A DNA stretch of 64,000 nucleotides from Escherichia coli (lineage in GTDB: Bacteria; Pseudomonadota; Gammaproteobacteria; Enterobacterales; Enterobacteriaceae): the NCBI RefSeq assembly GCF_050920415.1, contig NZ_CP169309.1. One strand, written 5' to 3'. Both the position numbers and the translations under genes were made by a program. Of this stretch, positions 5,226-56,053 are shown piece after piece; the stretch's first letter is position 1; each line of letters starts with the position of its first letter. Below the pieces are notes generated by a model. That model searched no databases. It saw nothing but the letters and a program-made list of their open reading frames with translations, and had not been told where the DNA came from.

Positions 5226-6338
5226 TTATTTTCCGCTCTTCACTTTGGTCCACGCGCGGGTGCGCACACGGTCGATTTTCGGATCCTGCACTTTCAGAGT
5301 GAACAGCTTCGCACGGACATCCGCAGGCGGGTAAATACCGGGGTTATCACGCACTTCCGCGCTTACCAGCGGCGTAGCTTCTTTGTTCGCGTTGGCATAG
5401 AACACATGGTCAGAGATATGCGCTACGACATCCGGACGCAGCAGGTAATTCAGGAACTGATAAGCTTCGTCTTTATTTTTGGCATCCGCAGGCATGGCAA
5501 ATACATCAAAGAATGCCATCGCCCCTTCTTTCGGAATCGAGAACGAGACATTAACGCCATTCTTCGCTTCCTTCGCGCGGTTTGACGCCTGCCAGACATC
5601 GCCCGCCCAGCCAATAGCGACGCAGATATCGCCGTTTGCCAGGTCGTTAATGTATTGAGATGAATGGAAATAACGAATGTTCGGGCGCAGCTTTAACAGC
5701 AGATCGGTTGCCGGTCCGGTGTAATCATCTGCTTTAGTGCTGTTGGGATCTTTACCGAGATAATTCAGCACGGTAGCAAACACTTCTTCCGGTGCATCAA
5801 GGAAAGAGACGCCGCAGCTTTTCAGTTTTTCCAGATTTTCAGGTTTGAGGATCAAGTCCCAGCTATCGACGGGCGCGTTTTCGCCCAGCACCGCTTTAAC
5901 TTTATCGACGTTATAACCAATCCCGGTCGTCGCCCACATATAGGGCATAGCAAATTTATTGTCGGGATCGTGTTTGGCGACCAACTTCAGCAGTTCCGGG
6001 TCGAGATTCTTCCACTCCGGCAATTTGCTTTTATCCAGCGGCTGGAAAACTCCCGCAGTCAACTGGCGCTCCAGAAAGCTGGCAGATGGAACCACCAGGT
6101 CAAAGCCGGTGCTCCCTGCCATTAATTTGCCTTCCAGTACTTCGTTAGAGTCGAAAACATCGTAGACGACTTTAATACCGGTTTCTTTTTCAAAATTGGC
6201 CACCGTGTCCGGGGCGATATAATCAGACCAGTTATAAATGTGGAGTGTTTTTTGTTCAGCCGCGAGCGTGCCGACAGAGACGGCCATCAGAGCACCCGCA
6301 ACCAGACCCGATAGCCATTTTTTATTTAAGGCGGTCAT
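5226..6338 (-). CDS. potF: Putrescine-binding periplasmic protein PotF
   Basis: Internal start MTALNKKWLSG with signal peptide gives 370 aa; the track ORF has a 50-aa N-terminal extension. Confidence 0.94.
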   Translation of the reverse strand: MTALNKKWLSGLVAGALMAVSVGTLAAEQKTLHIYNWSDYIAPDTVANFEKETGIKVVYDVFDSNEVLEGKLMAGSTGFDLVVPSASFLERQLTAGVFQPLDKSKLPEWKNLDPELLKLVAKHDPDNKFAMPYMWATTGIGYNVDKVKAVLGENAPVDSWDLILKPENLEKLKSCGVSFLDAPEEVFATVLNYLGKDPNSTKADDYTGPATDLLLKLRPNIRYFHSSQYINDLANGDICVAIGWAGDVWQASNRAKEAKNGVNVSFSIPKEGAMAFFDVFAMPADAKNKDEAYQFLNYLLRPDVVAHISDHVFYANANKEATPLVSAEVRDNPGIYPPADVRAKLFTLKVQDPKIDRVRTRAWTKVKSGK

Positions 6339-6624
6339 ATCTCTTTCCTTCTGAAAGTTCGTTAACAAACGAACAAAAGTTGTCACACTGAAAGATATGC
6401 AATATTCGTGCATATTTTTTATCGGCTCGGTGTAAGAAAAGAGAACTCTCTCCCGGCCAGCACTGCTCGCTATATAAAAGCATCGCAAGAATAACTTTAG
6501 CCAGGGTTTGAGACTATAGCTCGGATTAAAAAACGGTATTTAACAAATTTTTATGCGTATTTGCTCTATGTGATAAAGCCAAATCGGCACAAGAGAAGTG
6601 AAATAATCTTTAAGAAAAGGTTAA

Positions 6625-6680
6625 AAACAGCAGATAATTTTGCAGCACGCAGTCACTGCGGCAGCGACTGCGTGCTCGAA
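6625..6680 (-). terminator. Putative terminator hairpin downstream of ybjN
   Basis: Near-perfect 16-bp inverted repeat AGCACGCAGTCACTGC / GCAGCGACTGCGTGCT at 6643-6676, followed on the minus strand by a T-rich stretch. Confidence 0.4.
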
Positions 6681-6688
6681 AGGAGTTA

Positions 6689-7165
6689 TCAGTGGAGGAA
6701 ATAGTTTTCGGTAACGTTGTTTTGCCCTTCATCGTCAGTCGGTAACAGCAGTTGATGGGCATTAGCTTCAAGAATGACCATCGAAATCTGCTCTTCGCTC
6801 TGACGCACGAACCATGCAAACTGCTCATAGGTTACGCCCTGCATAACGGATAAAGACTGGCAAACCACCAGCTTTGGCAGATTATCATCCTGCATATCAA
6901 GAAATGCTTTCACGGTCAGCGAACTGGCATTGATGGCTGATAAATCCGCCGCCAGCGGTAACACGGCTGAAGGTCGAACTTCCGCCATGGCAGAAAACAG
7001 GATCGTGTTATCGATCAGATCGATTTTGGCATCAAAGACACCGTCGAAATTCTGCATATGGGGCAGATGCAGAGCCTGACAGTTATCACATTCAAAAAAA
7101 CTCATCCCCAGGTCATCGAGCCATTGACGCAGCGTATCCAGACCAGGAACGACCAGCGATGTCAT
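6689..7165 (-). CDS. ybjN: YbjN, putative sensory transduction regulator
   Basis: Internal start MTSLVVPGLD gives 158 aa matching recalled YbjN. Confidence 0.9.
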   Translation of the reverse strand: MTSLVVPGLDTLRQWLDDLGMSFFECDNCQALHLPHMQNFDGVFDAKIDLIDNTILFSAMAEVRPSAVLPLAADLSAINASSLTVKAFLDMQDDNLPKLVVCQSLSVMQGVTYEQFAWFVRQSEEQISMVILEANAHQLLLPTDDEGQNNVTENYFLH

Positions 7166-7252
7166 AATTTTGTACAACCTCTTTCGATAAAAAGACCGGC
7201 ACAGCTTACGCAAAAAGCGCAGGCAAAACCATGATCAGTAATGTGATTGCGA

Positions 7253-8155
7253 CTAACCACCCGTTTTCAGGCAATATTCGGTCGTAGCGTGGCGTTCGAT
7301 CCAGCGGATCATTTTACCCGCGATGTCAATACCGGTGGTTTTTTCTATTCCTTCCAGCCCCGGCGACGCATTCACCTCCATCACCAATGGCCCGCGATTA
7401 GCACGCAGAATATCCACACCAGCAACGTCCAGCGCCATCGTTCGCGCGGCTTTTATCGCGATTTCACGCTCCTGTGGTGTGATACTGGCAACGCTTGCCG
7501 CGCCACCTCGATGCAAATTGGAACGAAAATCGCCCTCTTTCGCCCGCCGTTCAATCGCAGCGACCACTTCATCGCCAACAACCAGGCAGCGGATATCGCA
7601 CCCTTGCGCCTCTTTGATATATTCCTGCACCAGAATATGCGCGTTCAGACCGCGAAAGGCGTCAATCACGCTTTCCGCCGCCTGACGCGTCTCCGCCAGC
7701 ACGACACCAATTCCCTGCGTACCTTCAACCAGCTTAACCACCAGCGGCGCACCACCGACCATGTCGATTAAATCGCTGGTATCATCCGGCGAATGCGCAA
7801 TGCCCGTGACAGGCAGGTCGATGCCCTGACGCGCCAGCAGTTGCATCGAACGCAATTTGTCACGCGCCCGGGCAATGGCGACCGACTCATTGAGCGGATA
7901 GCTCCCCAGCATCTCGAACTGGCGCAGTGCCGCCGTCCCATAAAAGGTAATGGCGGTGCCAATACGCGGGATCACAGCGTCAAAATGGGGTAACTTGCGG
8001 CCTTTGTAGTGAATAGAAGACGCCGCAGGATTTATGTTCATGTAGCAAGAAAGCGGATCAAGAATTTCAACCAGGTGACCACGCTGTACAGCGGCTTCAC
8101 GCAGCCGCTTACACGAATAGAGCGTTCCATCCCGGGACAATATGGCAATTTTCAC
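7253..8155 (-). CDS. rimK: Ribosomal protein S6 glutamate ligase RimK (ATP-grasp)
   Basis: 300-aa ORF starting [10 protein letters not shown]; ATP-grasp motifs; matches recalled RimK. Confidence 0.95.
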
Positions 8156-30730: not shown

Positions 30731-32602
30731 TTATCTACGCATGAATGCGTATTCTGATTGTGGTTGTGCGACGTAATGCCCCGGCCCGACGCATTGCAAC
30801 GAGACGGCTGCAACCTCTTCGCCACGCAGATGAATATTGCTGGGAAGATCGTCCGACAGCAGTACACGCTGCGGTCGTTGTCGGGACGGTTCAGCGACCG
30901 GAACTGCCGCCAGTAATTTACGCGTATAAGGATGCTGCGGATTTTCAAAGACCGCGCGCCGTGGACCAATTTCAACAATTTGCCCGAGATACATCACCGC
31001 CACACGATGACTAATCCGCTCTACAACGGCCATATCGTGGGAGATAAACAGATACGCAATGCCGAAATCACGCTGGAGATCGAGCAACAAGTTGATAATC
31101 TGCCCGCGAATAGAAACATCCAGCGCTGATACGGCTTCATCGGCAATAATCACTTTTGGATTCAATGCCAACGCGCGAGCAATGCAGATGCGCTGTCGCT
31201 GGCCACCGGAAAACTCATGCGGGTAACGCCACGCATGTTCAGGTAACAGACCCACGCGCTCCAGCAACCACGCAACGCGTGCAGCAGCTTCTTTACCTTG
31301 CAATAAACCGTGTACGCGCAACGGTTCGATAATCGAATCACCGATGGTCTGACGTGGGTCCAGCGAGGCGTAAGGATCCTGAAAAATAAACTGAATATCG
31401 CGGCGCAATGCCTGAAGTTTGCCGGGTGAAAGGGTATCGATTCGCTGACCGTTAAAGATAATTTCGCCGCCCTGCGATTCGACCAGGCGCAGCAACGCCC
31501 GCCCGGTAGTAGATTTACCGCTGCCAGACTCGCCCACCAGCGATAGCGTTTCGCCAGGCCAGAGATCAAAACTGACTTTCTCAACGGCATGCACTTCCCG
31601 CGTTACGCGATTCAACAAACCACTGCGCAAAGGGAAACGGGTAACCAGATTACGCACCCGTAAAACAGGTTCGCCATCCACCACCGTCTTCTGCTCGATG
31701 GGTGGTTCCTGTTTCACTGGATGTTCAAGCGATATGAGCGGGAAACGTCGGGGATAATCTCCCCCTTTCATCGCACCAAGCTGCGGGACAGCAGCTAACA
31801 GCGCACGGGTGTAAGGATGTTGTGGTGCATGAAAAATCTGTTTGACGCTACCCGTTTCCACCGCCTCGCCCTGATACATCACCAGTACCCGATCGGCAAT
31901 CTCTGCCACCACACCCATATCGTGAGTGATAAAGATAACGCCCATCGACATCTCTTTTTGCAATACTTTGATTAATTGCAGGATCTGCGCCTGAATAGTG
32001 ACATCCAGCGCGGTGGTTGGCTCATCGGCAATCAGCACCGCCGGGCGGCATGACAGTGCCATCGCAATCATCACTCGCTGGCGCATCCCGCCAGAGAGTT
32101 GATGCGGATAACGTGAAAGAATGGTTTGTGCCTCCGGAATGCGTACCTGATCCAGCATCCGCTTCGCCTCGACCATTGCTTCTTCACGACTGGCGTTTTG
32201 ATGCAGACGAATTGATTCGGCAATCTGTTCACCCACAGTAAATACCGGGTTCAGCGATGTCATCGGCTCCTGAAATATCATTGCCATATCCGCACCGCGC
32301 ACATGGCGCATTTGTGCAGCGCTCTGCTCGCTAAGTTCAATCACTTCGCGAGTGCGCCGCCGCAACAGCATTTGATCGCACTGCACTAAACCGCCCGCCT
32401 GTTCCAACAGGCGCATCAGTGCCAGCGCAGTCACTGACTTACCAGAGCCGGATTCGCCAACAATTGCCAGCGTCTCACCGCGTTGCAGGCTAAAAGAGAG
32501 ATTGCGGACCGCAGCTATTTTCTGCTGGTCCTGCCTAAAGGCAATATTCAGATTTTCAACCGCCAGCACATCACCGGCATCAAGTTCATCACTGTGTGGC
32601 AA
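30731..32602 (-). CDS. gsiA: Glutathione ABC transporter ATP-binding protein GsiA (TTG start)
   Basis: Two ABC cassettes (two Walker A GESGSGKS motifs); recalled 623-aa protein begins at [10 protein letters not shown], which is TTG at 32600-32602. Confidence 0.92.
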
Positions 32603-42509: not shown

Positions 42510-42615
42510 TCATGCCGGATGCGGCGTGACCGTCTTATCCGACCTACAAAATCATGCAAATTCAATATATTGCGATACACTGTCAGGCCTGATAAGCGTA
42601 GCGCATCAGGCAATT
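42510..42615. repeat. REP/BIME-type extragenic palindromes
   Basis: GCCGGATGCGGCGTGACCGTCTTATCCGACCTAC and AGGCCTGATAAGCGTAGCGCATCAGGCA between ybiU and ybiT. Confidence 0.6.
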
Positions 42616-42671
42616 TTGCATTTGTCATCAGTTTCAGTAGCCCTGGCCATATCAGGGCTACTGATAATAAC

Positions 42672-44264
42672 TTACTCGATCCCTTTACTACGCAGGTAAT
42701 CTTCGTAATTACCGCTAAAGTCGATCACGCGTTCCGGGGTGATTTCCAGAATTCGGGTCGCCAGGGAGCTTACAAACTCACGGTCGTGAGAAACAAAGAT
42801 CAGCGTGCCCTGATACAGTTCCAGCGCCATGTTCAGCGACTCAATGGATTCCATATCCAGGTGGTTGGTCGGTTCGTCCATGATCAGAATATTCGGCTTC
42901 TGCATCATTAACTTACCAAACAGCATCCGCCCTTTTTCTCCACCGGAAAGCACTTTCGCTGGCTTTTTGATGTCGTCCTGGCTGAACAGCAAACGACCGA
43001 GAATGCTGCGTACCGCCTGCTCGTCATCGCCTTCCTGCTTCCACTGACTCATCCATTCGAATACGGTCAGATCATTTTCGAACTCATATTCGTGGTCCTG
43101 GGCGTAGTAACCAATGCGCGCGTTTTCAGACCATTTTACGGTGCCGCTGTCCGGTTGCAGATCGCCCACCAGCGTTTTCAGCAGCGTTGATTTACCGACG
43201 CCGTTGGTACCCAGTACCGCCAGTTTTTCACCCACTTCCAGCAGCAGGTTGAGATTTTTAAACAGGGGACCGTTATCAAACCCTTTGGTCAGATCTTCCA
43301 CTTCCAGCGCGTTACGGAACAGTTTCTTATCCTGTTCAAAACGGATGAACGGGTTCTGACGGCTGGAGGCTTTCACCTCTTCAAGTTTGATTTTATCAAT
43401 CTGGCGTGCGCGCGAAGTTGCCTGGCGAGATTTCGAGGCGTTGGCACTAAAGCGGCTAACGAAAGATTGCAACTCAGCAATCTGCGCTTTCTTCTTGGCG
43501 TTATCAGCCAGCAGACGTTCACGCGCCTGAGTCGCCGCCGTCATGTACTCATCGTAGTTGCCCGGATAAACGCGCAGTTCACCGTAATCCAGATCCGCCA
43601 TGTGGGTACAAACCATGTTAAGGAAGTGACGGTCGTGCGAGATGATGATCATGGTGCTGTCACGCTCGTTCAGCACCTGTTCCAGCCAACGAATGGTGTC
43701 GATGTCGAGGTTGTTGGTCGGTTCGTCGAGCAGGAGAATGTCCGGATCAGCAAACAGCGCCTGCGCCAGCAGCACACGCAGCTTCCAGCCAGGAGCAACT
43801 TCACTCATCGGGCCGTAGTGCTGTTCCACTGGAATTCCCACGCCAAGCAACAGTTCACCAGCGCGAGCTTCCGCAGAGTAACCGTCCATTTCGCCGTATT
43901 TCACTTCCAGATCGGCCACTTTATAGCCGTCTTCTTCACTCATTTCCGGCAAAGCATAGATGCGGTCGCGCTCCTGCTTCACTTCCCACAACTCTTTATG
44001 CCCCATGATCACCGTATCCAGCACGGTGAACTCTTCAAAGGCAAACTGATCCTGACGCAATTTACCAATGCGCTCGTTGGGATCGAGGGAAACGTTACCC
44101 AGCGTCGGCTCTAAGTCGCCGCCAAGGATCTTCATAAAGGTGGATTTACCACTACCGTTCGCGCCAATCAGGCCGTAACGGTTGCCGCCGCCAAACTTGA
44201 CGGAAATGTTTTCAAACAACGGCTTACTGCCGAACTGCATGGTGACGTTACTGGAAACTAACAC
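42672..44264 (-). CDS. ybiT: ABC-F family ATPase YbiT
   Basis: 530-aa ORF with two ABC cassettes (GANGSGKST and GTNGVGKST) and no TM domain. Confidence 0.93.
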
Positions 44265-44482
44265 AGGCGTATCCTGAAAAGAGATATGACAAACCGCGTA
44301 TTATGCCATAAGTCTGAAAGAAGATCCCGTCCCCCGCTTAAGGTCTACACTCTTCCCAAAGGCAAAAAATGTGATTTCGTACACATCTGATTTCACTGTG
44401 AGCTGGAATGAACTTATAATGCGCTTCCAATACTCTAATATTCTCAACCCAATGGCCTGCCAGGCACAAAATCTCGCTTAAC

Positions 44483-45403
44483 ATGAATATGAAATTGAAA
44501 ACATTATTCGCAGCGGCCTTCGCTGTTGTCGGCTTTTGCAGTACCGCCTCTGCGGTAACTTATCCTCTGCCAACCGACGGGAGTCGCCTGGTTGGTCAGA
44601 ATCAGGTGATCACCATTCCTGAAGGTAACACTCAGCCGCTGGAGTATTTTGCCGCCGAGTACCAGATGGGTCTTTCCAACATGATGGAAGCTAACCCGGG
44701 TGTGGATACCTTCCTGCCGAAAGGCGGTACTGTACTGAACATTCCGCAGCAGCTGATCCTGCCGGATACCGTTCATGAAGGCATTGTCATTAACAGCGCA
44801 GAGATGCGTCTCTATTACTATCCGAAAGGCAGCAACACCGTTATCGTGCTGCCCATCGGCATTGGTCAGTTAGGCAAAGACACGCCTATCAACTGGACCA
44901 CCAAAGTTGAGCGTAAAAAAGCAGGCCCTACCTGGACGCCGACCGCCAAAATGCACGCAGAGTACCGCGCTGCGGGCGAACCGCTTCCGGCTGTCGTTCC
45001 GGCAGGTCCGGATAACCCGATGGGGCTGTATGCACTCTACATCGGTCGCCTGTACGCTATCCATGGCACCAACGCCAACTTCGGTATCGGCCTGCGTGTA
45101 AGTCATGGTTGTGTGCGTCTGCGTAACGAAGACATCAAATTCCTGTTCGAGAAAGTGCCGGTCGGTACTCGCGTACAGTTTATTGATGAGCCGGTAAAAG
45201 CGACCACCGAGCCTGACGGCAGCCGTTATATTGAAGTCCATAACCCGCTGTCTACCACCGAAGCCCAGTTTGAAGGTCAGGAAATTGTGCCAATTACCCT
45301 GACCAAGAGCGTGCAGACAGTAACTGGTCAGCCTGATGTGGATCAGGTCGTGCTGGATGAAGCGATCAAAAATCGTTCCGGGATGCCGGTTCGTCTGAAT
45401 TAA
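44483..45403 (+). CDS. ldtB: L,D-transpeptidase LdtB (YbiS)
   Basis: 306-aa ORF with signal peptide and catalytic SHGCVRL motif. Confidence 0.93.
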
Positions 45404-45421
45404 TCTTCAAAACTTAAATTA

Positions 45422-45451
45422 AAAGGCGGACTCATAATCCGCCTTTTTTAT
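45422..45451 (+). terminator. Rho-independent terminator after ldtB
   Basis: Hairpin AAAGGCGGACTCATAATCCGCCTTT followed by TTTATTT. Confidence 0.55.
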
Positions 45452-45461
45452 TTGCCAGCAC

Positions 45462-46580
45462 CTAGCTGGCCGGGAACATAACTAACAAAACGTATCCCAC
45501 CAGCGCCGCCCACAACAGCATCGGTATTGAATAGAGATGGAAACGCCACCAGATACGGCGATCGTTTGCCATCCGTAACGCAATCAAATTTGCCAGCGAT
45601 CCGGGTAATAAACCAAAGCCACCCACGTTTACCGCCCATGCCAGTAATAAAGACGGTGGCACATAATTGAGCAGCAAAATCGTGCTCGGCACGTTACTGA
45701 TCACCTGCGATAAACCAATTGCCGTTAACCATAATCCGGGTTCGGATAAATGGCTCACATTGCTCAACACGCCCTGCAAAGCTGGCAGTTGGGTCAGCAA
45801 ATGGACGTCGATAAACATCGCCATAAATACCAGCAGCAGAGTCCAGTCCACGCTGATCACCACGCGACGAGCCAGCAGCGCAAAGCCCGCCGCTACAATC
45901 ACCAGTCCCCACAGCTCTTGTTTTAACTCCAGCGCCGTCAGAAAGACGATATACAGCCCCAGACAACTCCACACCAGCCGCGGTTTCCACTCAGGTGTTT
46001 GCGCCCCCGTATGATATTGCAGCGCCTTTCCAGGGAAACAACACCAGCACAGTAGCAGGAGTGTCAGCATCATTGCGCCAGCCAGCGGTGCCATTTGGGC
46101 AATAAACCCGGCAAACGAAAGACCAGAACGACCCCAGATAAGAATATTTTGCGGGTTGCCAATCGGCGTCAGTAGCGAACCCGCATTGACTGCCAGCGCC
46201 TCAAAAATAATCAGTCGATTAACCGGGATCTCACACAGTCTTTTTAGTGTGATTGTCAGCGGAACAACAATAAACAGCGCGACATCGTTGGTCAGAAATG
46301 TTGAAAGCAACGCCGCCGCCAGCACCATAAACATTGCCAGCCGACGCTCAGTAGCAAAGCGGCGCACCATTTTGCGCCCCAGCACATCAAAATAACCGCT
46401 TAACTCCACACCTTTGGTCAGCAGCATCAGGCCACTGAGGGTGATGATAGTGTGCCAGTCGATAGCAGCAAGCCAGGATTTCGGTGCAAAGGGAACGAAA
46501 AAACTTAATCCGATGCCAACAAGAATTAATAACTGAAAAAAGCGATCGCCTTGTAGCGTGCGTAAAAAAGGCAGGCTCAT
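45462..46580 (-). CDS. ybiR: Putative anion permease YbiR (ArsB/NhaD superfamily)
   Basis: 372-aa multi-TM ORF; ATGA overlap with the mntR stop. Confidence 0.9.
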
Positions 46581-47044
46581 TTGGCACCGTGTTTCTGGGT
46601 AAACAAACGAAAGGCATCCAGCGTCTCTTCACTGACATGGTGCTCCATGCCTTCCGCGTCGCGACGAGCGATTTCCGGGCTGACGCCCAACACCAACAAG
46701 AAATTTTCGACTATCTGATGTCGCTCGCGGCTTTCCTGCGCCAGTTTCTCTCCTTCTGCCGTTAAAAACACGCCACGCCAGGGGATCATTTCAATCAGCC
46801 CCATGGTTGCCAGTCGTTTGAGCATTTTAGCCACCGTCGGTTGCGAAACGCCCAGACGAGCAGCCATGTCCACCTGACGAGCTTCCCCCACTTCCCTGAT
46901 CAAGTCAGAAATCAGCTCAACGTAATCATCAATAAGCTCGCGCCGGTGTGCCTCTCTGACCTGGCGGAACCCTTCAACGTGCTCTTCCACATTCACTAAC
47001 TGCGTCACTTTTTTTGCTGTTGGCGTACCTGCGCGACGACTCAT
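46577..47044 (-). CDS. mntR: Manganese-responsive transcriptional regulator MntR (DtxR family)
   Basis: 155-aa [25 protein letters not shown] matching recalled MntR. Confidence 0.95.
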
Positions 47045-47409
47045 TGTGCTTCCTCATTATGGTGACGCATACATAGCGTTCTCATTTCGTGCGCACATTG
47101 TAAACCAGAGTTGCGAAGGTACAAAAAATTAACGTTTTAGCAATAGCTATATAATATAGCTTTGGACCCCAATAAAAACCAAATGAAAACAATTAATTAT
47201 GAAAGAAATATCATTGTAATGTCGCAAGAATGTCGCAGAATTTTGAATTTTACATCAAACAGAAATCTTACATAAGTCGTCGAAAAGGAAAACTACCAAT
47301 ATCTTTTCGGTGTTTCCTTTCCCCAAATGGAATTTTTCCTGTTATGCTAATATTCGTTTTAAGGTGTTGATAACTAACATTACACAAAGCAATTAGAACG
47401 GATACTAAC

Positions 47410-48984
47410 ATGGCTAAAAACGCAAAAAACGAGAAACCAAAAAAGTTAGCTTATAGAATAAAAAGTATTAATATTGAAAAATTAAAAGGTATAAATAACT
47501 GCCCTATTTCCTTCCCAGCAGACAGGTCTGTAACTGCTATAATGGGAATTAATGGTTCAGGTAAATCAACAATATTGCACGCTCTATCATGTGTTTTCAA
47601 ACCCAAAGAAAAATCATCCCAAGAAAATAATAGATTTTCTGACTTCTTTACCCCTCACAATGAAAATAACTGGCAAGATAGTAAATTCTCAGTAAAATTT
47701 CGAGCGGGAGAGATAAAAAACAATGGTAATAAAGTCTTTTTTGAAGAAATAGATAATGAAGAAAAGAAAGATATTGTTTATGGCAAGGATAAAAGGTGGA
47801 AACCAGTTTACGCAAGAAGACTTGAAAGAGAATCTATATATATAGGATTACAAAATCTTGCAACGTTAGCTGACAATACAGGAGCATCAAGATACTCAGA
47901 ATATGAAAGAGTAGATATTTATGATAAAGATATAAAGAATCAAATGATATTAGCTCTGAATAAAATCTTAGATGCAGATTACAACGATTTGTTTGAATGC
48001 CGCACCATTAAGGGAAACAAAAAATTCATAGGCATGGTTAAAAACGGCATTGAGTATACAGAACATACTATGGGTGCTGGAGAAAAGAGAGTCTTTGAGA
48101 TAGTTAAAAATGTTTATAATGGAAAGTTAATGCCCAATGGTTTTCTAATCATTGATGAAATAGATGTTTTGCTACATGAAAGAGCTTTTCATGAATTAAT
48201 TAATTTTCTTATCGAAGAAAGCAAGTCTATGTGTTTTGAGGTTGTTTTCACAACACATAGAGAATCCATAATAAAGTTTAAAAATCAAATCAATATAGTA
48301 AGTATATGGAACATAGGGAATGGAATAGAGGCTTATCCCGGCGTTTCTGCGGATGCTCTTCGACAGATATCCAATGTAGAACCTGATATGGTCAATGTGT
48401 TTGTAGAAGACAACTTAGCAAAAACAGCACTAAATATTTTAGTTGAAAGTGAAGGTATGAATGAACAAGTTGATATCTCGCTTTTTGGTTCGGCTGAGAA
48501 TTCAGCTGTAATTTTGTCAGGACTTAAATTAACTGGCAAACGAATTGATACAAGCCTGGCAATTTTAGACGGTGATTACTATATTACCCTCCCTGAAAAG
48601 ACCAAAATGGTTGATAGAGTGTTATCTGGAACAGATAAAAAAGTAGAAAAAAAAGAAGTCTTATCAAGAATATTCCAATTCAATTTAGATGTGACTGACG
48701 TCAAAGGCTCTCCAGAAAAAAACCATCGTGATTGGTTTGAATCTATAGACGAAAACAATATTTCGGAAAATGATAAGACAATGTTTCTTAACCTGAAAAA
48801 ACATTCTACAAGTATTGGTGCTTTAACTGATTATCATGAATATTATCCAGAGTTAGCTCGAAGGTCAAAATTAGATAATATTGAGTACAAAGTTTTGAAT
48901 TATATTAGTAAGTATAGTAATAAATGGGATTTTTACATAAATGATATTAGAAATGAAATAAAAAAAGCAATTGCAGCGATCTAA
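47410..48984 (+). CDS. ABC-type ATPase fused to a TOPRIM-like domain; class-1 OLD-family-like nuclease, candidate anti-phage defence protein
   Basis: 524-aa ORF in AT-rich DNA. Walker A GINGSGKST (aa 46-54), signature-like MGAGEKR (221-227), Walker B FLIIDEID (245-252), H-loop TTHR (281-284), then a TOPRIM-like Glu (FVEDN, E333) and DxD (LDGDY, 387-389). Own terminator downstream. Confidence 0.6.
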   Translation: MAKNAKNEKPKKLAYRIKSINIEKLKGINNCPISFPADRSVTAIMGINGSGKSTILHALSCVFKPKEKSSQENNRFSDFFTPHNENNWQDSKFSVKFRAGEIKNNGNKVFFEEIDNEEKKDIVYGKDKRWKPVYARRLERESIYIGLQNLATLADNTGASRYSEYERVDIYDKDIKNQMILALNKILDADYNDLFECRTIKGNKKFIGMVKNGIEYTEHTMGAGEKRVFEIVKNVYNGKLMPNGFLIIDEIDVLLHERAFHELINFLIEESKSMCFEVVFTTHRESIIKFKNQINIVSIWNIGNGIEAYPGVSADALRQISNVEPDMVNVFVEDNLAKTALNILVESEGMNEQVDISLFGSAENSAVILSGLKLTGKRIDTSLAILDGDYYITLPEKTKMVDRVLSGTDKKVEKKEVLSRIFQFNLDVTDVKGSPEKNHRDWFESIDENNISENDKTMFLNLKKHSTSIGALTDYHEYYPELARRSKLDNIEYKVLNYISKYSNKWDFYINDIRNEIKKAIAAI

Positions 48985-48991
48985 ACCTCAT

Positions 48992-49021
48992 AAAAGGCGT
49001 AATTTATACGCCTTTTTTTAA
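48992..49021 (+). terminator. Rho-independent terminator after the OLD-like gene
   Basis: Hairpin AAAAGGCGTAATTTATACGCCTTTT followed by a T-run, 8 nt after the stop. Confidence 0.55.
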
Positions 49022-49181
49022 GGTTTAAATTATAGTTGCTAATTTCTACTCTTTGTTCCCTCTGTTCGTGCACGTTTCAGGTAGTAAGCTCTCCATCGAA
49101 CCATAGAGATTGAACGCTTTGATTTTTTTTTACATACTGTCTGAAGCTCATTTACTAAGTATTGATAGTCAGGATGACAAC

Positions 49182-49808
49182 ATGACCTCCTACGATGAAC
49201 TTAAAGAATGCATCCGCCTTGAAGTCATTGGCCATGACAAATCCTTTTCATGGCGTAAAGCGTTACTTCGTACCCGACGCAACCAGAAGAAGCACTTCCT
49301 GTTCTGGTGGCGTATCGCTTCATGGCTCTATGGCCAGAATAGTAAGTTCAAAAAGCGCATTGCCCGCAGAATTGAAAACCGCCTCAAGTACCTGCATAGC
49401 GTTGATATTTCGCTGTCATGCAAAATCGGCAAGGGTTTAAACATTGCTCATCTGAACGGTATTGTCATTACTGACAATTGCGTGATTGGTGATTTCGCCG
49501 ACCTGAAGCAAGGCATCACCATAGGGTTACGCACCGACAGTGCCGACGCGATGATAGTCATTGGTGATCATGTTGATATTGGCTGTAATTCGTCCATTCT
49601 GGGCGGCAAGGTTACGATCGGAAACAATGTCACCATTGGGGCGCATTCACTGGTACTTCAGAACATCCCCAGCGACACCGTTTATAAAAACAAGATCACG
49701 CCGGTGTATACATCCAAACTACCGCAGCAGGAATATCAGGAAAATCGGCCTTTTGTCACTGGCAAGGCGATAAAAGAAGCGTCCCGTTCCGCAGAAGCGG
49801 TGCTGTAA
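49182..49808 (+). CDS. Hexapeptide-repeat (left-handed beta-helix) acetyltransferase, CysE/WcaB-like
   Basis: Start MTSYDELKE preceded by AGGATG; the 232-aa track start at 49110 has no RBS. N-terminal helical region (RIASWLY...RIARRIENRLKYLHSVDI) then hexapeptide repeats IGKGLNIAH-GIVITDNCVIGD-ITIG-IVIGDHVDIG-VTIGNNVTIGAHSLVL. Confidence 0.6.
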   Translation: MTSYDELKECIRLEVIGHDKSFSWRKALLRTRRNQKKHFLFWWRIASWLYGQNSKFKKRIARRIENRLKYLHSVDISLSCKIGKGLNIAHLNGIVITDNCVIGDFADLKQGITIGLRTDSADAMIVIGDHVDIGCNSSILGGKVTIGNNVTIGAHSLVLQNIPSDTVYKNKITPVYTSKLPQQEYQENRPFVTGKAIKEASRSAEAVL

Positions 49809-50186
49809 TTTCGCTGAACAAATTTCAGTTATGAAGATTGCATAAATTTACGTGCAGCCCGCGCCAGCTCTTACAAGCGGGCTAATCTCTATAATGTCTG
49901 GCTTATCTCCCAACGATCCACGAACACCGCCTAAAATATAATTTTCCCTTTATTATCTGTGCGTTATGATTTTACACCGATCCTTAACAGATCCTCTTTA
50001 CTGAAAAAAATGAAATTTCTTTCAATCATTTCAGTTCCTGTTCTCCGCAAAGCCGCCAGTAATGGTGCGGTCTGGCGCTCTGGTTTGTAGAAAAATAAAA
50101 CTGAAAAAATTTCCAGATCCAGAAACCGCAGGCGGGTGCGGTGTAGCGCCGTTTTTGTCTGCGAAAGATTTATTTTGTCGGCGCAT

Positions 50187-50230
50187 CGCAGCGCCAGCGC
50201 AGCGCCAGCGCAGCGCCAGCGCAGCGCCAT
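50187..50230. repeat. Four tandem copies of an 11-bp unit CGCAGCGCCAG
   Basis: Direct reading: cgcagcgccag x3 then cgcagcgccat, in the non-coding gap between the acetyltransferase and the tail operon. Confidence 0.8.
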
Positions 50231-50315
50231 GCGCACGATCTTTTATGTGTGTTGCGTTGGGTTAATTTGTTGCCTGAAGTGCTGAGGGCGCGTTCTGCTG
50301 CGTCTGAGGAAGGGT

Positions 50316-50342
50316 ATGAAAAAGCCCGCATTATGCGGGCGT
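50316..50342 (-). terminator. Rho-independent terminator at the end of the tail operon
   Basis: On the minus strand, hairpin GCCCGCATAATGCGGGC followed by TTTTTC, 10 nt after the stop of the 567-aa gene. Confidence 0.5.
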
Positions 50343-50352
50343 GTTGTCATGG

Positions 50353-52056
50353 TCAGGCAATTATATTCTGGTACTTGCTCCGGGTCTGCCCTGCTTTCGT
50401 CGCCGTCTGTACGAACGCGTCAGCATTGGTTGGCGTCCCAACAGTGGGGTGTGAATGGTTCGCGCATTGCTGCGCCAGCTCTGCCAGTAAATCAATGGTA
50501 TCCAGCATCATGGTCAGGGCGTTGATACTCTCGCTGCCAATATGGACAGTTGCCCCCATGACCTGCTGACCGCCAGCGGCCACTGATTTACGCAGTGCGG
50601 CAATCTTCTCTGTCAGGCTTTCGCCAACCTCCACGGCTACAGCACCGCCCACTTTAGTGGACTGCTGTCCTGCTATGTCCGTTTCTTCGTTTCCTTCAAT
50701 ACTGGCCAGCCTGTTTCCTTTCACCGCCTGGCTATAATCACCGGCGCTTACCTGCTGGATGGCTCCGGCCAGCAGTGTGGCGGTTCCCAGTACCGTGGTT
50801 TTATCCGTGGCTTTCACCGTGGTTTCACGGCTGACCAGTTCGCGCTGTTCCGTATCGGCTTTTACGGTTCGCGCCATCGATGTTTCGCTGATGGTCTGAT
50901 CGGTCTGCCTTACCCAGTCGCCCGCCTGAGTCACCCTCTGGGATACTTCTTCCCGCTGCTGCTGCAACTGTTCACCGGGTTTAACGTCCGGCAGACTGGT
51001 GCCATCCGGTAGCGTCTGCCTGATAAAAGGTTTATCCGGTCTGCCTCCCGTGAATGCAACCTCAACCAGCGTCCCTTCTGGCGGAAACTGAAACATACCT
51101 GAATCATTCCCGGCCATTGGTACCGGCAGCGGCACCGCTGAATAAACAGGCGTCTGATTGTCCGGGTTTCCGTCTGCGTCAAGCAGCTGCACGTCCACGG
51201 CGTAACGTGGCCGGAAGGGATCGGCAAAGTTACCGCTTTTTACCGGCTCTGAATGCGCCACAACTCTGGCCATCTTTGGCAAATGAAGCCCGGATGCCAG
51301 TTCCGGGTAATGGCTTTCAATCTGCCGTTGCGCCGGTGTTTTCTGCAAAGGTTTACCCGTTGCGCGGTTTCTCGGCGTCCATGTGATCGCCATCGCGTCA
51401 TTAGTCAGGTGAACTTTAGTCACGCGTTCACCGTTCATCTCCACCCCTGGCCGCATAGTCTGGATCACTGGTAATGTCACAGAGTTACCGCCAGCAGCCC
51501 CCTGGCTGAACTCTGACGGGATTTCTACGGGGCGACCGGCAAATAATGACTTTTCTGCGCCGCCGACGTAAAGCGAACCATCAGGCAACTGGTACCAGAT
51601 GTAATCCTGGATACTGAACGCCCTTCCCAGATTGTTCAGCAACTGATAACCAGTACCGTTATGGGTAAAATGTGGGATGGGGGTATCGCTGTACTGTGCA
51701 TCAGGCACACTGACCGTGATCCCGCTGTTTTCTTCCAGCCAGCTGGCAACCTCGCGTAAAGTTGGATGTTGAAATGAGCACGGCCACATCCTTTCAAATA
51801 CACCTGCCAGCTCACGAATGAACAGACGCTGAAAACCGTTTTCAGCGGGCTGCGATCGCTCCACATACCCCGTAAACCAGCGCAAAAGCAGATCGGTATA
51901 CCCCACATCCAGCCGCACCAGTTTTCCGGTGTAATCGGTTGTTGTCTCTGCGGTGATGAAGCCCCGGCCGCAGCTGTTCAGCTCCAGTACCAGGCTGGCA
52001 TCCACCAGGTGAACTTCATCAGTTGAAAGGTAAAGGCGTTTTACTGGTTTCATCAT
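50353..52056 (-). CDS. Phage tail hub/spike-like protein (gpV/VgrG-type OB-fold candidate)
   Basis: 567-aa ORF, last gene of the tail operon; internal segment GTLVEVAFTGGRPDKPFIRQTLPDG resembles the G-x-V-x-V-x-F-x-G-D-x-D-x-P-x-I motif of gpV/gp5/VgrG spikes; Ala/Gly/Thr-rich C-terminal region. Confidence 0.4.
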   Translation of the reverse strand: MMKPVKRLYLSTDEVHLVDASLVLELNSCGRGFITAETTTDYTGKLVRLDVGYTDLLLRWFTGYVERSQPAENGFQRLFIRELAGVFERMWPCSFQHPTLREVASWLEENSGITVSVPDAQYSDTPIPHFTHNGTGYQLLNNLGRAFSIQDYIWYQLPDGSLYVGGAEKSLFAGRPVEIPSEFSQGAAGGNSVTLPVIQTMRPGVEMNGERVTKVHLTNDAMAITWTPRNRATGKPLQKTPAQRQIESHYPELASGLHLPKMARVVAHSEPVKSGNFADPFRPRYAVDVQLLDADGNPDNQTPVYSAVPLPVPMAGNDSGMFQFPPEGTLVEVAFTGGRPDKPFIRQTLPDGTSLPDVKPGEQLQQQREEVSQRVTQAGDWVRQTDQTISETSMARTVKADTEQRELVSRETTVKATDKTTVLGTATLLAGAIQQVSAGDYSQAVKGNRLASIEGNEETDIAGQQSTKVGGAVAVEVGESLTEKIAALRKSVAAGGQQVMGATVHIGSESINALTMMLDTIDLLAELAQQCANHSHPTVGTPTNADAFVQTATKAGQTRSKYQNIIA

Positions 52057-52601
52057 TAACCCAAAGCATCATTGACGGGCTTCAGCACCTTGCGTTCAAA
52101 CCACGTCAGTTTTTCTTCATCTTCTCCGGCAGACTGGCCACCGGACTGTCCCGCACTGCCGGTAGTCTGTTTTTTTGCGGTCGTCTTACCTGTTGCCCTG
52201 GCCTCTCGCTTTTCCTGCACGCTGATATGTTCCGCCAGTGTGAATGTCACCAGCCAGGCCATTTTCCCGTCCTGCTGGGGTGCATCCAGCATTCCGCTGA
52301 ACGTTGCTTCACGAAAATTAACAGCACGGGCAACTTCATGCGCCACGCGGTACTTCTGACGATTACCACTGGCATCGGTAGCACTGGCCAGCTCAAAAAT
52401 ACGCTTCAGTATTTCAGGCTGTTTAAAAGGTATTTCACCGCTGATCCGCAGTTCCTTTCCCTTTGCTCCCTGCTCTGATTTTGTTGTGGCGCTGGTCTGG
52501 CCGGACTGATCTTTATCCTGAAATTGCTGTGAAACAGTCACCCGCATGTTTTTCAGCTGGATGGCCTCGCCATTAAGCGCCAGTGTCGGGATCGAAGTCA
52601 T
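52056..52601 (-). CDS. Phage protein of unknown function within the tail operon
   Basis: 181-aa ORF translationally coupled to neighbours; no recognisable motif; Lys/Gln/Gly-rich C-terminus. Confidence 0.35.
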   Translation of the reverse strand: MTSIPTLALNGEAIQLKNMRVTVSQQFQDKDQSGQTSATTKSEQGAKGKELRISGEIPFKQPEILKRIFELASATDASGNRQKYRVAHEVARAVNFREATFSGMLDAPQQDGKMAWLVTFTLAEHISVQEKREARATGKTTAKKQTTGSAGQSGGQSAGEDEEKLTWFERKVLKPVNDALG

Positions 52602-53298
52602 GAATCATTCCCTTTATTCCATCAAGATTATCGCCAACCAGCATCATGGCAGCGGTGTAAACGGCAGACTGCTGCGGAATGTCCTTCACCAGTTCCAGTA
52701 ACGTGGTGCCGGTGTCTCCGCTGGCAGTAAAAACCCACACTCTGGCACTCTTTCCCTGTAAATCATTCAGGCCGCTGGCTACATCACTGATAAGCTGGTC
52801 ACGCAGCTGCGTGAACTCGCCCAGCTGTTTTTTCAGCCCTTCGATATCAAACCCGGCATCCGCCGCCTTTTGTGCCTGGCTGATTGCCGTAGCAGATAAA
52901 GCTGCCCTGCTGGTTGGTACAGACAGCGGAATGGACGCAGGTAACGCTGCGGCGGTTTTCGCAGGGATCTGCATCTTTTCAATAGCCAGCGCTGCGGCGG
53001 ATTGCGCCAGTCGTTTGACCTGCGTGAATGCCGGGGCGGGGAAAATCCCGACCAGGTTATTCAGGCTGGCCATAAAGTTTTCCTGTGTCTGTCCGGTGAC
53101 CATCATAATCACCACGTCCGCATTCCCCCCAGTTCCGGCCAGGCGTTCAGCAAGATAGCGAACGGCATTAACCGGGCTGAGATATGCCCCGTTCGCAGTC
53201 TGCTGTCCCAGCCCATAAATCCACGGATGCGCAGGAACGATCGAACAGTTCAGCGCAGCAACAGAATCCGTGAAGGCCAGACGTGCTTCACGCCACAT
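52573..53298 (-). CDS. Phage protein of unknown function within the tail operon
   Basis: ORF 52573-53334; start chosen at MWREARL to minimise overlap with tfa; no recognisable motif. Confidence 0.3.
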   Translation of the reverse strand: MWREARLAFTDSVAALNCSIVPAHPWIYGLGQQTANGAYLSPVNAVRYLAERLAGTGGNADVVIMMVTGQTQENFMASLNNLVGIFPAPAFTQVKRLAQSAAALAIEKMQIPAKTAAALPASIPLSVPTSRAALSATAISQAQKAADAGFDIEGLKKQLGEFTQLRDQLISDVASGLNDLQGKSARVWVFTASGDTGTTLLELVKDIPQQSAVYTAAMMLVGDNLDGIKGMIHDFDPDTGA

Positions 53299-53875
53299 TT
53301 CCAGGCACCTCCGGCCACACAATTTCCGGCGCATCTTCCGGTTGAATACGGTTCAGTAAAACGCGGTATTTTTTCCAGGCGGTAAGCAGCAGTGCTTCTT
53401 CTTCAGTCGCCATGTCTAAATCAACGGCATCCTGCAATGTGGCAATGGCGTCATTGGCCTGTTTAAGCAGTCTTTTCTTTTCGGCGTCTGCCTCGCTGAC
53501 TAATGCAATTCGCATGGCCTCCGCATCATCCACCCACGCCTTACCATTCCATTTTTGCCAGGCATTAGCCGGTGCAGACGTGGTTGTCCCTTCCGGGTAA
53601 GCGCCTGGCTCGGTGATCACCAGTTCATTACCGTTTTCTGTATCAAACACCACCTCACCACGATGATCCTCACGGGAAATCCATCTTTGCTTCTCTGAAT
53701 CAAAAATTGCCACAAACCCCGCTTTGATTACCGGTGGTTTTATTGTGGTGCAGTTAGCTGGTAGTCCGGTATGCGCAGGTATAAAAGCGTCACCCGAACC
53801 AATAAATTCATTCGTGTCGGAACGCAGGTTATAAACAGTAACTATTTGATCGGTTTCACTCATTTTAAAAGTCAT
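53288..53875 (-). CDS. Tail fiber assembly protein (Tfa family)
   Basis: 195 aa; close resemblance to recalled E. coli TfaE/TfaQ-type proteins (NEFIGSGDAFIPAHTGLPAN ... KWNGKAWV ... LLTAWKKYRVLLNRIQPEDAPEIVWPEVP). Confidence 0.8.
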   Translation of the reverse strand: MTFKMSETDQIVTVYNLRSDTNEFIGSGDAFIPAHTGLPANCTTIKPPVIKAGFVAIFDSEKQRWISREDHRGEVVFDTENGNELVITEPGAYPEGTTTSAPANAWQKWNGKAWVDDAEAMRIALVSEADAEKKRLLKQANDAIATLQDAVDLDMATEEEALLLTAWKKYRVLLNRIQPEDAPEIVWPEVPGNVA

Positions 53876-55449
53876 TATGCGAGTCTCACTATGTAGTTAA
53901 ATGCAATATTCTTAACGGTCGTTTCTGCGTTGCCCGACGCGGCGACGGTAATGGTGTGGCTATGTGCGCCAATTGCCACGGTATGAGAGTGAGCGCCAAT
54001 ACCTACGGTGTGATTATGTGCACCAATGGCTACGGTGTGCGCGTGGTTTCCCGCCGAACTGGTGGCGGCTCGCCCCTGATCGCTACGTGGTACCCCCCAG
54101 TCACTACCACCTGATTGCACGTTCCCGCCATAACCAATGGTGTGCGTATGCGCTCCCGTGGTATTTGTCGTTTTCGTGCCATAGTCAAACGTGCTCGCCG
54201 TTTTAGTACCGTAATCAAAGGACGATGTTGGTTTTGTCCCCAGATCGGTACTGGATGCACTGGCTGTGTGGTCATGAGATTTATTGCCATCATCTTCATA
54301 GGAGAGAACTGCGCGACCGTCTGGCTTTCCTTTGATTGTCTGGCGGCGCATGTCAGTAATAACACCCGATGGATACGCAGCAGCCAGCAAAGGATATGCC
54401 GCCGTATTAAAAGACTGCCCCTGCATAATTGCCCATCCAGTAGGTGGGATATCCGTTGGCCATGGAAGCGGCACACCAACCGGCAGAACATCACTGCGAC
54501 TTAAAACGGCCAGTTCACCCAGATCCAGACTTTTTCTTGCTTTTACTTTGTCGTTAACATCAGCAAGGTTTGCATCCTTACGCAAAAAATCGCTGCTGGC
54601 CTGCTGTTCTCCCAGGCTACCTTTTGGCCTTAAATCCGTGATGTTGCCATCCGCATCAATGCTGGCCACAGCAAACACATAATGCTGAACCCCGTTCTGA
54701 ACGTAATCAGCAAGATTTGCAGCCACCGTGATTTTGCTCTGCACATTCCAGACACTGGTCAGCGTCCCTGTCCAGCACACATCCAGCCAGACTTTTACCG
54801 GCTTTGTCGTTACCGTAATATTCTGATTCGCAGCCAGTGACGCACGAAGTCCAGCCACATACCCCGTGCCTTTCGTGACAAAAAACTGATTTCCGGTTTT
54901 GGCTACCAGATACCCGTTACCAAAAAACGCCGCCGCGCCATAAATATCCATATTTTCCAGGCGCTGGCGCTCATCCATTCCGGCCATACGCGCTGTAAAA
55001 TCAATCTGCCATGTTTCAGCGGGTGTATTAATCCCGGTTTCCGTTTGTGCGCCGTTGTACTCCATCAGAAACGAGCGGGTCAGCACGTTCCCCTGTTGAC
55101 CTTCTTTTGTTTTCAGTTTCTGCTGTGATGGTGCATGGACAATCATTGCCAGAGTACCGCTGGCCTTATTGAGCAGACCGATCCAGTTAAAACTGAAATC
55201 ACCCACATCTGCGCCCAGCACTACGGAATAAACCACCCCGTTTTCATTCACCACACCGGTGCGGGTAACAGATTGCCGGTGAACAATCTGTGCTGTCGGG
55301 GGCAACGCTTCATTGCGGTCAACAGGTGTATCCGGGTTTAAATCCGGCACACTGGCAAAAACAAATTCATCCAGTAGTACCGGTTCACCCGTTGCGCCCT
55401 GCTGTGCTTTCCAGTTTTCAAACGCCAGTGTGATGGCTGTCTGTGACAT
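53875..55449 (-). CDS. Side tail fiber protein
   Basis: 524 aa; C-terminal HxH repeats [49 protein letters not shown] typical of Stf-family fibers; immediately upstream of tfa. Confidence 0.8.
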
Positions 55450-55459
55450 AAAAACCTCC

Positions 55460-56053
55460 TTACAAACTCGCGCTGAATGTTGCGCTGCGGGCTTCCGTCC
55501 CTGCTAACGTCGCCGGGTAAACCACATATTCCCCCTGATCCCACCCAGCCCTGATAACCAGGCTTTCAGACGTGATCACCTCAAACTGATAACGGCGGCA
55601 TGTTCGCCCGTACTGGCGGATTATCTGGATCAGCAGCTGCGTGTTGTCTGCAATCTGGCTGTCTGTAACCCGAACCAGAATCACATCCCAGTCGATATCC
55701 GGTTGCCGTTCTAACAGCTCCACATAACCAATTCCCAGCCGTTCAAAGATATTGATAAACCCCTCTACTGAACCGGCATCCCGCGCATTCACGAAGGCAA
55801 AAGCCACGCGTTTGCGGAACAGGGTCAACGGTTCACCATCAAAGCGGGTGATATCCCGGTCATAAGCCAGCAGATTCAGTAATGCCGGTGTACACGTCAG
55901 CGGATCAAACTGGTTCATTGGCCAGGTAACCCAGCCGTAAACCTCAGCCCAGAACCGCCGCGCCGCTTTCAGCAATTTCCCCGGTTCACCTTTATTCATC
56001 CAGGAAGGCAAGACCATCCCGGCCAGCTTTTTCATGAACTCATTCATTCTCAA
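55460..56053 (-). CDS. Tail protein, YmfQ/gpI-like (DUF2313-type)
   Basis: 197 aa between the baseplate J-like gene and the fiber, as for e14 ymfQ; family assignment is from memory only. Confidence 0.55.

Follow-up and report, generated by a model that had tools for sequence, protein, structure and literature searches.

An 11-bp tandem array beside the inferred cos site of an ESSI-2-like prophage: a likely case of recent repeat expansion

Cos-adjacent DNA in P2-like phages and in the prophage carrying the array

In phage P2 variable cargo genes are followed by cos, by a GC-rich leader of ∼140–175 bp and by the terminator of a leftward late operon. A 55-bp cos core of P2 and P4 has been described (Ziermann and Calendar 1990, as cited in PMC5694545); in the sequences compared here the P2–P4 identity block consists of 29 bp on the left, the 19-nt cohesive end and 7 bp on the right. 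Accessory or defence genes are known to accumulate in slots adjacent to cos, both in P2-like phages and in P4 satellites (Rousset et al. 2022, PMC9122126). In P2 the ori annotation falls within gene A, and the gene of the origin-nicking protein is far from cos, as it also is in annotated relatives. In phage lambda, cosB is made of terminase small-subunit R sites and an IHF site, beside cosN. Our search of the literature on tandem repeats at the cos sites of P2-like phages gave nothing of relevance, and no array such as the one described below is present in P2, Wphi, 186, PsP3 or P4, the five members of the P2 family in our comparison.

The array is located in a 64-kb stretch of DNA from Escherichia coli, to which we refer as the window. 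As judged by sequence similarity, the host element of the array is an ESSI-2-like prophage (Peduoviridae, Quadragintavirus-type; P2-like), integrated beside mntR. BLAST searches against phage records led to the ESSI-2 group of Peduoviridae (Cronobacter phage ESSI-2 and Escherichia phages ESSI2_ev129, ev015 and ev040). The order of elements is the one given above for P2, from cargo genes through cos and leader to terminator, while the neighbours are different: the ESSI-2-like cos adjoins the tail-spike operon and an int/att-proximal cargo slot, the P2 cos adjoins the portal gene Q and the old/tin slot. The main features of this part of the prophage are as follows.

47106–47163, no strand: left prophage/host junction beside mntR, approximate; sequence is host-like up to ∼47158–47163, and a near-identical metagenome contig starts at 47106
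47410–48984, plus strand: ABC/OLD-like ATPase cargo gene (Pfam SMC_N/AAA_15/AAA_21; PADLOC HEC-04, 3e-33)
49110–49808, plus strand: hexapeptide (serine-acetyltransferase-like) acyltransferase cargo gene, convergent on the array from the left
50324–50340, minus strand: intrinsic terminator of the tail/spike operon, GCCCGCATAATGCGGGC then TTTTTC, kept in relatives
50353–52056, minus strand: baseplate central spike gene, last of the tail operon, convergent on the array (weak Pfam matches: Phage_base_V, gp5_C)

The mntR gene occupies positions 46577–47044 and the prophage starts shortly beyond it, at ∼47106–47163, a point at which E. coli K-12 has the mntS region. Searches for attP in ev129, ev015 and ESSI-2 with the mntR-side junction of the window gave no match, which indicates a different integration module in those phages. 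On the host side the chromosome is ∼96% identical to E. coli over ybiT-ldtB-ybiR-mntR (about 96.15% to three E. coli genomes in 42587–47158, from ybiT to mntR); given this level of sequence identity, the chromosome may be that of a divergent Escherichia lineage and not of typical E. coli.

Cargo varies across E. coli prophages in the slot that extends from the mntR-side prophage end to cos; other prophages at the mntR site carry in it genes for reverse transcriptase, AIPR, PIN/STAS (plus ATP-binding) or DUF6338 proteins. We consider the ABC/OLD-like ATPase gene found in this slot of the window a candidate defence gene. The arrangement resembles the hotspots of Rousset et al. (2022, PMC9122126) in that an OLD/ABC-like ATPase gene and an acetyltransferase gene adjoin cos; it differs from them in that the array is on the structural-gene side of cos, outside the variable cargo, and from the P2/P4 hotspot in that the ESSI-2-like cos adjoins the int/att side. 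The placement of cos thus explains the position of the cargo genes, as a cos-adjacent hotspot of the kind known in P2 and P4.

Beyond the spike gene, genes for baseplate, tail-fibre-assembly and tail-fibre proteins follow on the same strand. The array itself is in an intergenic region of 544 bp between the convergent gene ends at 49808 and 50353. A first-pass annotation of this DNA had called the region a spacer of a cargo island; this was inaccurate, as the DNA in question is the phage cos region.

Placement of the cos site

Matches to phages of the ESSI-2 group were located at the ends of linear records. The ESSI-2 record has the same 15 nt, GCGGGTGCGGTGTAG, at its start and at its end, corresponding to window positions 50132–50146; the P2 record follows the same convention for its 19-nt cohesive ends. 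The phage sequence of ev129 and ev015 halts at window position 50134/50139 at one record end and resumes at 50143 at the opposite one, with Nextera adapters abutting it at both. Multiple alignment with P2 and P4 placed GGCGGGTGCGGTGTAGCGC on the P2/P4 cohesive end GGCGAGGCGGGGAAAGCAC. Local alignment of the window cos region directly to P2 gave nothing convincing, and MAFFT with several family members was needed to align the two; a second alignment, with the four-unit allele included, was distorted by the insertion and was excluded as homology evidence. Taken together, the ESSI-2 record ends, the ev129 and ev015 ends and the P2/P4 alignment identify the 544-bp intergenic region as the phage cos region. 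The cohesive end homologous to GGCGAGGCGGGGAAAGCAC and situated at virion DNA ends, as characteristic of P2-family cos, is at 50131–50149 and not at the array.

As to the records themselves, a Nextera/Tn5 mosaic-end adapter was left in RefSeq entries NC_049394 (ESSI2_ev129, our locus L004; positions 1–44 and 30879–30927) and NC_049395 (ESSI2_ev015, L005; positions 1–48), and the last annotated CDS of ev129 (30741–30926) extends into it. The adapters abut physical DNA ends, and as such they aided the placement of cos.

The features around cos and the array are listed below.

49981–50183, no strand: conserved cos-region block, common to ESSI-2-like phages of E. coli, Salmonella, Cronobacter and Yersinia, ending at the left edge of the array
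∼50102–50156, no strand: equivalent of the 55-bp P2/P4 cos core, from the P2–P4 identity block
50131–50149, plus strand: inferred cos cohesive-end site GGCGGGTGCGGTGTAGCGC, homologue of P2 GGCGAGGCGGGGAAAGCAC with 11 of 19 bases identical
50181–50186, no strand: left arm GCGCAT of an inverted repeat bracketing the array, pairing with ATGCGC at 50229–50234 (sequence and DNA folds)
50187–50230, no strand: 11-bp tandem array, three units of CGCAGCGCCAG and one of CGCAGCGCCAT
50187–50208 or an equivalent register: the extra two units (22 bp), missing in all relatives compared
50229–50234, no strand: right arm ATGCGC of the inverted repeat, overlapping the last unit of the array (sequence and DNA folds)
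50237–50240, no strand: GATC; counted from cos base 1, it is at +84 in 42 of 44 relatives and, owing to the 22-bp expansion, at +106 in the window

The array begins 38 bp rightward of the cohesive end and 31 bp beyond the equivalent of the 55-bp core. It is therefore not within the core common to P2 and P4; cos is on one side of it and the terminator of the convergent tail-spike gene on the other.

That cos can be located in ESSI-2-like (Quadragintavirus/Seongnamvirus) prophages, with the int-proximal cargo slot on one side and the tail-spike operon on the other, is a by-product that we regard as more useful than the array. It delimits ∼200 bp of conserved cos DNA in which GATC sites are fixed, a candidate for packaging functions. 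Conservation is high in the ∼150 bp to the left of the cohesive end (49981–50131) across phages of Escherichia, Cronobacter and Yersinia; this block contains two copies of ACTGAAAAAA, an inverted repeat ACTGAAA...TTTCAGT and a CCAG...CTGGCG dyad; these elements probably are the main terminase-recognition sequences of the ESSI-2-like group. The sequence GATC is found at window positions 49979, 49990, 50116 and 50237, and its distances from cos (−153/−142, −15 and +84) are fixed in 40–42 of 44 ESSI-2-like loci despite varying neighbours. Dam-like methylases are encoded by ESSI-2-group phages. By analogy, the combination of fixed GATC sites and such methylases may reflect methylation-sensitive use of cos; the pac site of P1 is a precedent for use of a packaging site in this manner.

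The array and its copy number in relatives

Direct reading of the window at 50187–50230 gives CGCAGCGCCAG three times and then CGCAGCGCCAT. The terminal base of the fourth unit is T, and the array has 3.9 copies; the repeat first described as a perfect fourfold array is real, but only three of the units are perfect, the fourth matching at 10 of 11 bases. For 50187–50235 Tandem Repeats Finder (TRF) reported a period of 11, 4.4 copies, 97% matches and a score of 89, which makes it one of the two top-scoring arrays across the window. An alternative parse is a series of CAGCG pentamers with spacing alternating between 5 and 6 bp. The 11-mer (with at most one mismatch) occurs eight times in the window, four of these in the array itself, against 1.83 expected; as none of 100 shuffled controls reached eight occurrences, the array is far beyond chance. 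The flanks are AT-rich locally (gatttattttgtc / gatcttttatgtgtg), as had been stated earlier. With the bracketing arms GCGCAT and ATGCGC included, both single strands fold into long hairpins (DNA folds of −24.7 kcal/mol, z = −2.75, and −28.8 kcal/mol, z = −3.34, relative to shuffled sequences).

The units follow each other head to tail without spacers, as is characteristic of a variable-number tandem repeat (VNTR). A CRISPR array can be ruled out, in agreement with the first reading of the sequence: CRISPR repeats are 24–48 bp long and separated by unique spacers of comparable length, while the units here are 11 bp and contiguous.

Related loci were collected from several sources. Scanning IMG/VR with a cos-flank pattern gave 40 loci; complete E. 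coli genomes gave three loci with the same right-flank type, and phage records three more. Genome and metagenome collections scanned with a left-flank pattern gave one locus each, both with two units. Among these ∼50 loci we observed at most two imperfect units each, the extra 22 bp being present in the window only. Two units were seen in nine independent sequences with the E. coli-type flank (L001, L002, L004, L005, L010, L033, L049, L050 and L051), and ∼40 more diverged ESSI-2-like loci are unexpanded and of the same length. The units are CGTCGCGCCAA/CGCAGCGCCAT in Combat13F7, CGCTGCGCCAG/CGCAGCGCCAT in EH09-18-41, 160-11H1, ev129, ev015 and a Citrobacter MAG, and CGCAGCGCCAG/CGCAGCGCCAT in L010 and L050, while L033 has a CGCTGCACCAG variant; similarity between the two units is graded among the unexpanded relatives (8/11, 9/11 and 10/11). 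Locus L002 (E. coli 160-11H1, positions 6001–7681) is a deleted prophage remnant in which the cos region is fused to truncated portal and replication-endonuclease genes; the two-unit repeat and the cos flank persist in it.

The most informative relative is the metagenome contig L050. Over window positions 47106–54796 (7.7 kb) it differs from the window by one substitution (52163 T/C) and by the 22-bp indel at the array, where it has two units in place of four. A whole-unit difference in copy number between close relatives, as expected of a VNTR, is thus present, and the near-identity over 7.7 kb makes the array by far the fastest-changing site. Alleles with at least three units were found neither in IMG/VR (2.9 million contigs) nor among 5,426 complete E. 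coli genomes. Given an otherwise near-identical sequence with two units and no three-unit alleles, the expansion to four units is recent and lineage-specific. The slipped-strand mispairing suggested earlier gains support from the same pair of sequences. Invariance of copy number across strains, an observation that had been named as one to refute the first reading, is nearly what we found, since ∼50 relatives have the two-unit length and the window alone differs.

Regarding the non-coding nature of the array, our observations agree with the first-pass annotation. The array is located between convergent gene ends and is overlapped by small ORFs only, unsupported and non-conserved. As 22 mod 3 equals 1, a 22-bp change in copy number would frameshift any ORF across the array, and such a change does separate the window from its near-identical relative. 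A recombination scar, which had been considered as well, is not what the comparison indicates: similarity to many prophages falls off exactly at the array, but diverged relatives are colinear without indels and have CAGCG and GATC at fixed positions, which points to divergence and not to a scar. In a search of Rfam 15 with a permissive E-value, only BTH_s1 overlapped the array, at chance level (17.5 bits against a gathering threshold of 74; E = 0.98), and the RNAalifold consensus of 20 diverse relatives was essentially unstructured (−2.4 kcal/mol), with no supported pair in the repeat region; on these two results we rejected a conserved structured RNA.

Origin of the array and alternative explanations

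We think it likely that the array is a recently expanded, minisatellite-like VNTR, a product of slippage and probably neutral, in the leader next to the cos of a P2-like prophage. As a tandem-repeat expansion it is ordinary, and there is neither a gene nor a promoter for it to switch. The ancestral state would be the one present in every relative examined, a GC-rich quasi-palindrome, 22 bp long, that comprises two imperfect units of 11 bp (CGTCGCGCCAA/CGCAGCGCCAT or CGCTGCGCCAG/CGCAGCGCCAT) and is bracketed by GCGCAT...ATGCGC, i.e. GCGCAT-CGCTGCG-CCAG-CGCAGCG-CC-ATGCGC. A T-to-A change, as seen in L010 and L050, would have made the two units identical over 21 bp, and replication misalignment, probably hairpin-aided, would then have added two units (+22 bp) in the lineage of the window. 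Hairpins in single strands promote replication misalignment, and those predicted for the array could have acted in this way.

The array shares with slippage-type VNTRs of bacteria and phages its identical head-to-tail units, the difference in copy number between near-identical genomes, the hairpin-forming single strands and an apparent origin from an imperfect proto-repeat. From classical contingency loci it differs in having one variant allele, in its location outside coding and promoter sequence and in the lack of an evident switch function. With a single expanded allele known, recurrent hypermutability is not implied.

The leader DNA in which the expansion occurred, from cos to the tail-spike operon terminator, appears dispensable and looks untranscribed. 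In a prophage related to 186, retrons reportedly replace DNA between cos and a terminator (title of Dodd and Egan 1996, as listed in PMC5694545), which by analogy suggests that this stretch tolerates change. We would thus expect little or no phenotypic effect of the extra 22 bp. On the other hand, the fixed cos-to-GATC spacing (42 of 44 loci) and the fixed CAGCG amid heavy substitution hint that the stretch is not wholly free of constraint, and the insertion might be non-neutral. The array matters little by itself; as a case of tandem-repeat birth it is clean, since the steps from quasi-palindrome through perfect two-unit repeat to four-unit array have intermediates preserved in relatives. It could also act as a length marker of the prophage lineage.

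In a rival explanation the GC-rich DNA to the right of cos would be a cosB-like accessory packaging element, with CAGCG/CGCCAG as a recognition motif after an AT-rich bend. The expansion, which takes CAGCG from three copies to seven and adds two helical turns, would then alter packaging initiation or end protection. In every ESSI-2-like group the distance of a CAGCG from cos is indeed constant while neighbouring bases vary; P2 and Wphi have two copies of CAGCG, at +53 and +61, and positions 60–79 of P2 match the Salmonella-type sequence at +64–83 in 16 of 20 bases. An AT-rich run at ∼+38 to +52 followed by a GC-rich stretch is common to all family members including P4, and in P2, as in the ESSI-2-like group, the AT-rich run and a CAGCG-containing stretch are found at +40 to +80. 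The interval from cos to the GATC at +84 is without indels in the 42 loci mentioned, and an insertion of 22 bp, being close to two helical turns, would keep the helical phase. In lambda cosB, too, short motifs recur alongside an AT-rich, bend-like element, no more than ∼100 bp from the nick and at the structural-gene end; the 5–11-bp GC-rich units are, however, unlike the lambda R sites, so the likeness is one of analogy with binding putative. Less compatible with the proposal is P4: although packaged by the P2 terminase, it has just 7 bp in common with P2 on the right-hand side of the cohesive end. The E. coli-type flank is strongly diverged from the P2/Salmonella-type sequence, automatic cross-genus alignment was unstable in the stretch right of cos, and indels are rare throughout the intergenic region, which makes their absence weak evidence. 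We regard this putative role of the array in protein recognition and packaging as unlikely. Somewhat less likely still is the broader proposal that the whole stretch (AT-rich bend, CAGCG-containing GC-rich DNA and fixed GATC) serves P2-family phages as a so far unrecognised accessory element for packaging or end protection. If that were true, the window would present a natural allele with seven CAGCG against three and with spacing longer by two helical turns, and with changed efficiency of packaging or ejection; four positionally conserved GATC sites and the phage Dam-like methylases would then suggest methylation-controlled use of cos, as for P1 pac.

Transcription termination gives another possible role, and one to which we assign a similarly low probability. 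The quasi-palindrome and TCTTTTAT would form a plus-strand intrinsic terminator that blocks read-through from the cargo genes over cos into antisense of the tail operon, with the expansion merely making the stem longer. The cargo genes are transcribed towards it, and a terminator scan of the plus strand flagged GCGCAGCGCCATGCGC followed by ACGATCTTTT; two-unit alleles of the E. coli type have a 13-bp GC stem ending beside a T-run, and a still more stable fold was obtained for the window allele (95-nt RNA segment, −39.6 kcal/mol). The T-run, however, is short and interrupted, a terminator-like hairpin already overlaps cos (50138–50152) and another strong hairpin is at 50324–50340. Selection for termination should have kept the hairpin via compensatory changes across relatives, whereas we saw no family-wide covariation or consensus structure in the RNAalifold analysis described above, and hairpins are different or missing in Salmonella, Cronobacter and AHB29-type relatives. 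The roles offered by the first-pass annotation, a contingency locus altering promoter spacing or an array of protein-binding iterons, are least credible of all. The difference in copy number between near-identical genomes is what such a locus would produce; all other relatives, however, are uniform in length, just two lengths exist among ∼50 loci where a contingency locus should have many, and the array is neither in an ORF nor between promoter or operator elements. Scanning for sigma-70-like promoters gave none overlapping or flanking the array, and the genes on both sides end there and do not start. Iterons are expected as several 17–22-bp direct repeats beside DnaA boxes, an AT-rich unwinding element or an initiator gene, while the units here are 11 bp with no replication gene adjacent; in annotated relatives ori is distant and the replication-nicking gene is ∼20 kb off. 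Finally, the extra 22 bp could be an assembly or sequencing artefact of the source genome, given that the four-unit allele is unique, being absent as well from the one locus that each of the genome and metagenome scans gave. The insertion adds perfect units, exactly 22 bp and in register, and an array of 44 bp is shorter than ordinary reads and assembly k-mers, from which neither collapse nor inflation would be expected; we find an artefact very improbable. Slippage expansion of a two-unit proto-repeat is the explanation that we prefer.

Several further features of the window are worth recording. Chi (GCTGGTGG) occurs 15 times in 47 kb of host DNA (1–47100), with 12 of the 15 sites on the minus strand, and is absent from 17 kb of prophage (47100–64000). 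End protection by a Chi-like sequence was considered and rejected: the minus strand of the array reads GCTGGCGC, which differs from Chi at two of eight positions, and the phage part of the window has no true Chi.

Inside the tail-fibre-assembly gene a sub-threshold match to Rfam family IS009 was seen at 53334–53532 on the minus strand (42 bits against a gathering threshold of 117; E = 3e-7), which probably reflects homology with the prophage tfa-type sequence that founded the family. A second tandem repeat, of 27 bp (53953–54039; 3.2 copies, 71% matches, TRF score 90), is in the tail-fibre gene 53875–55449 on the minus strand, near its C-terminal end, and probably encodes a 9-residue fibre repeat.
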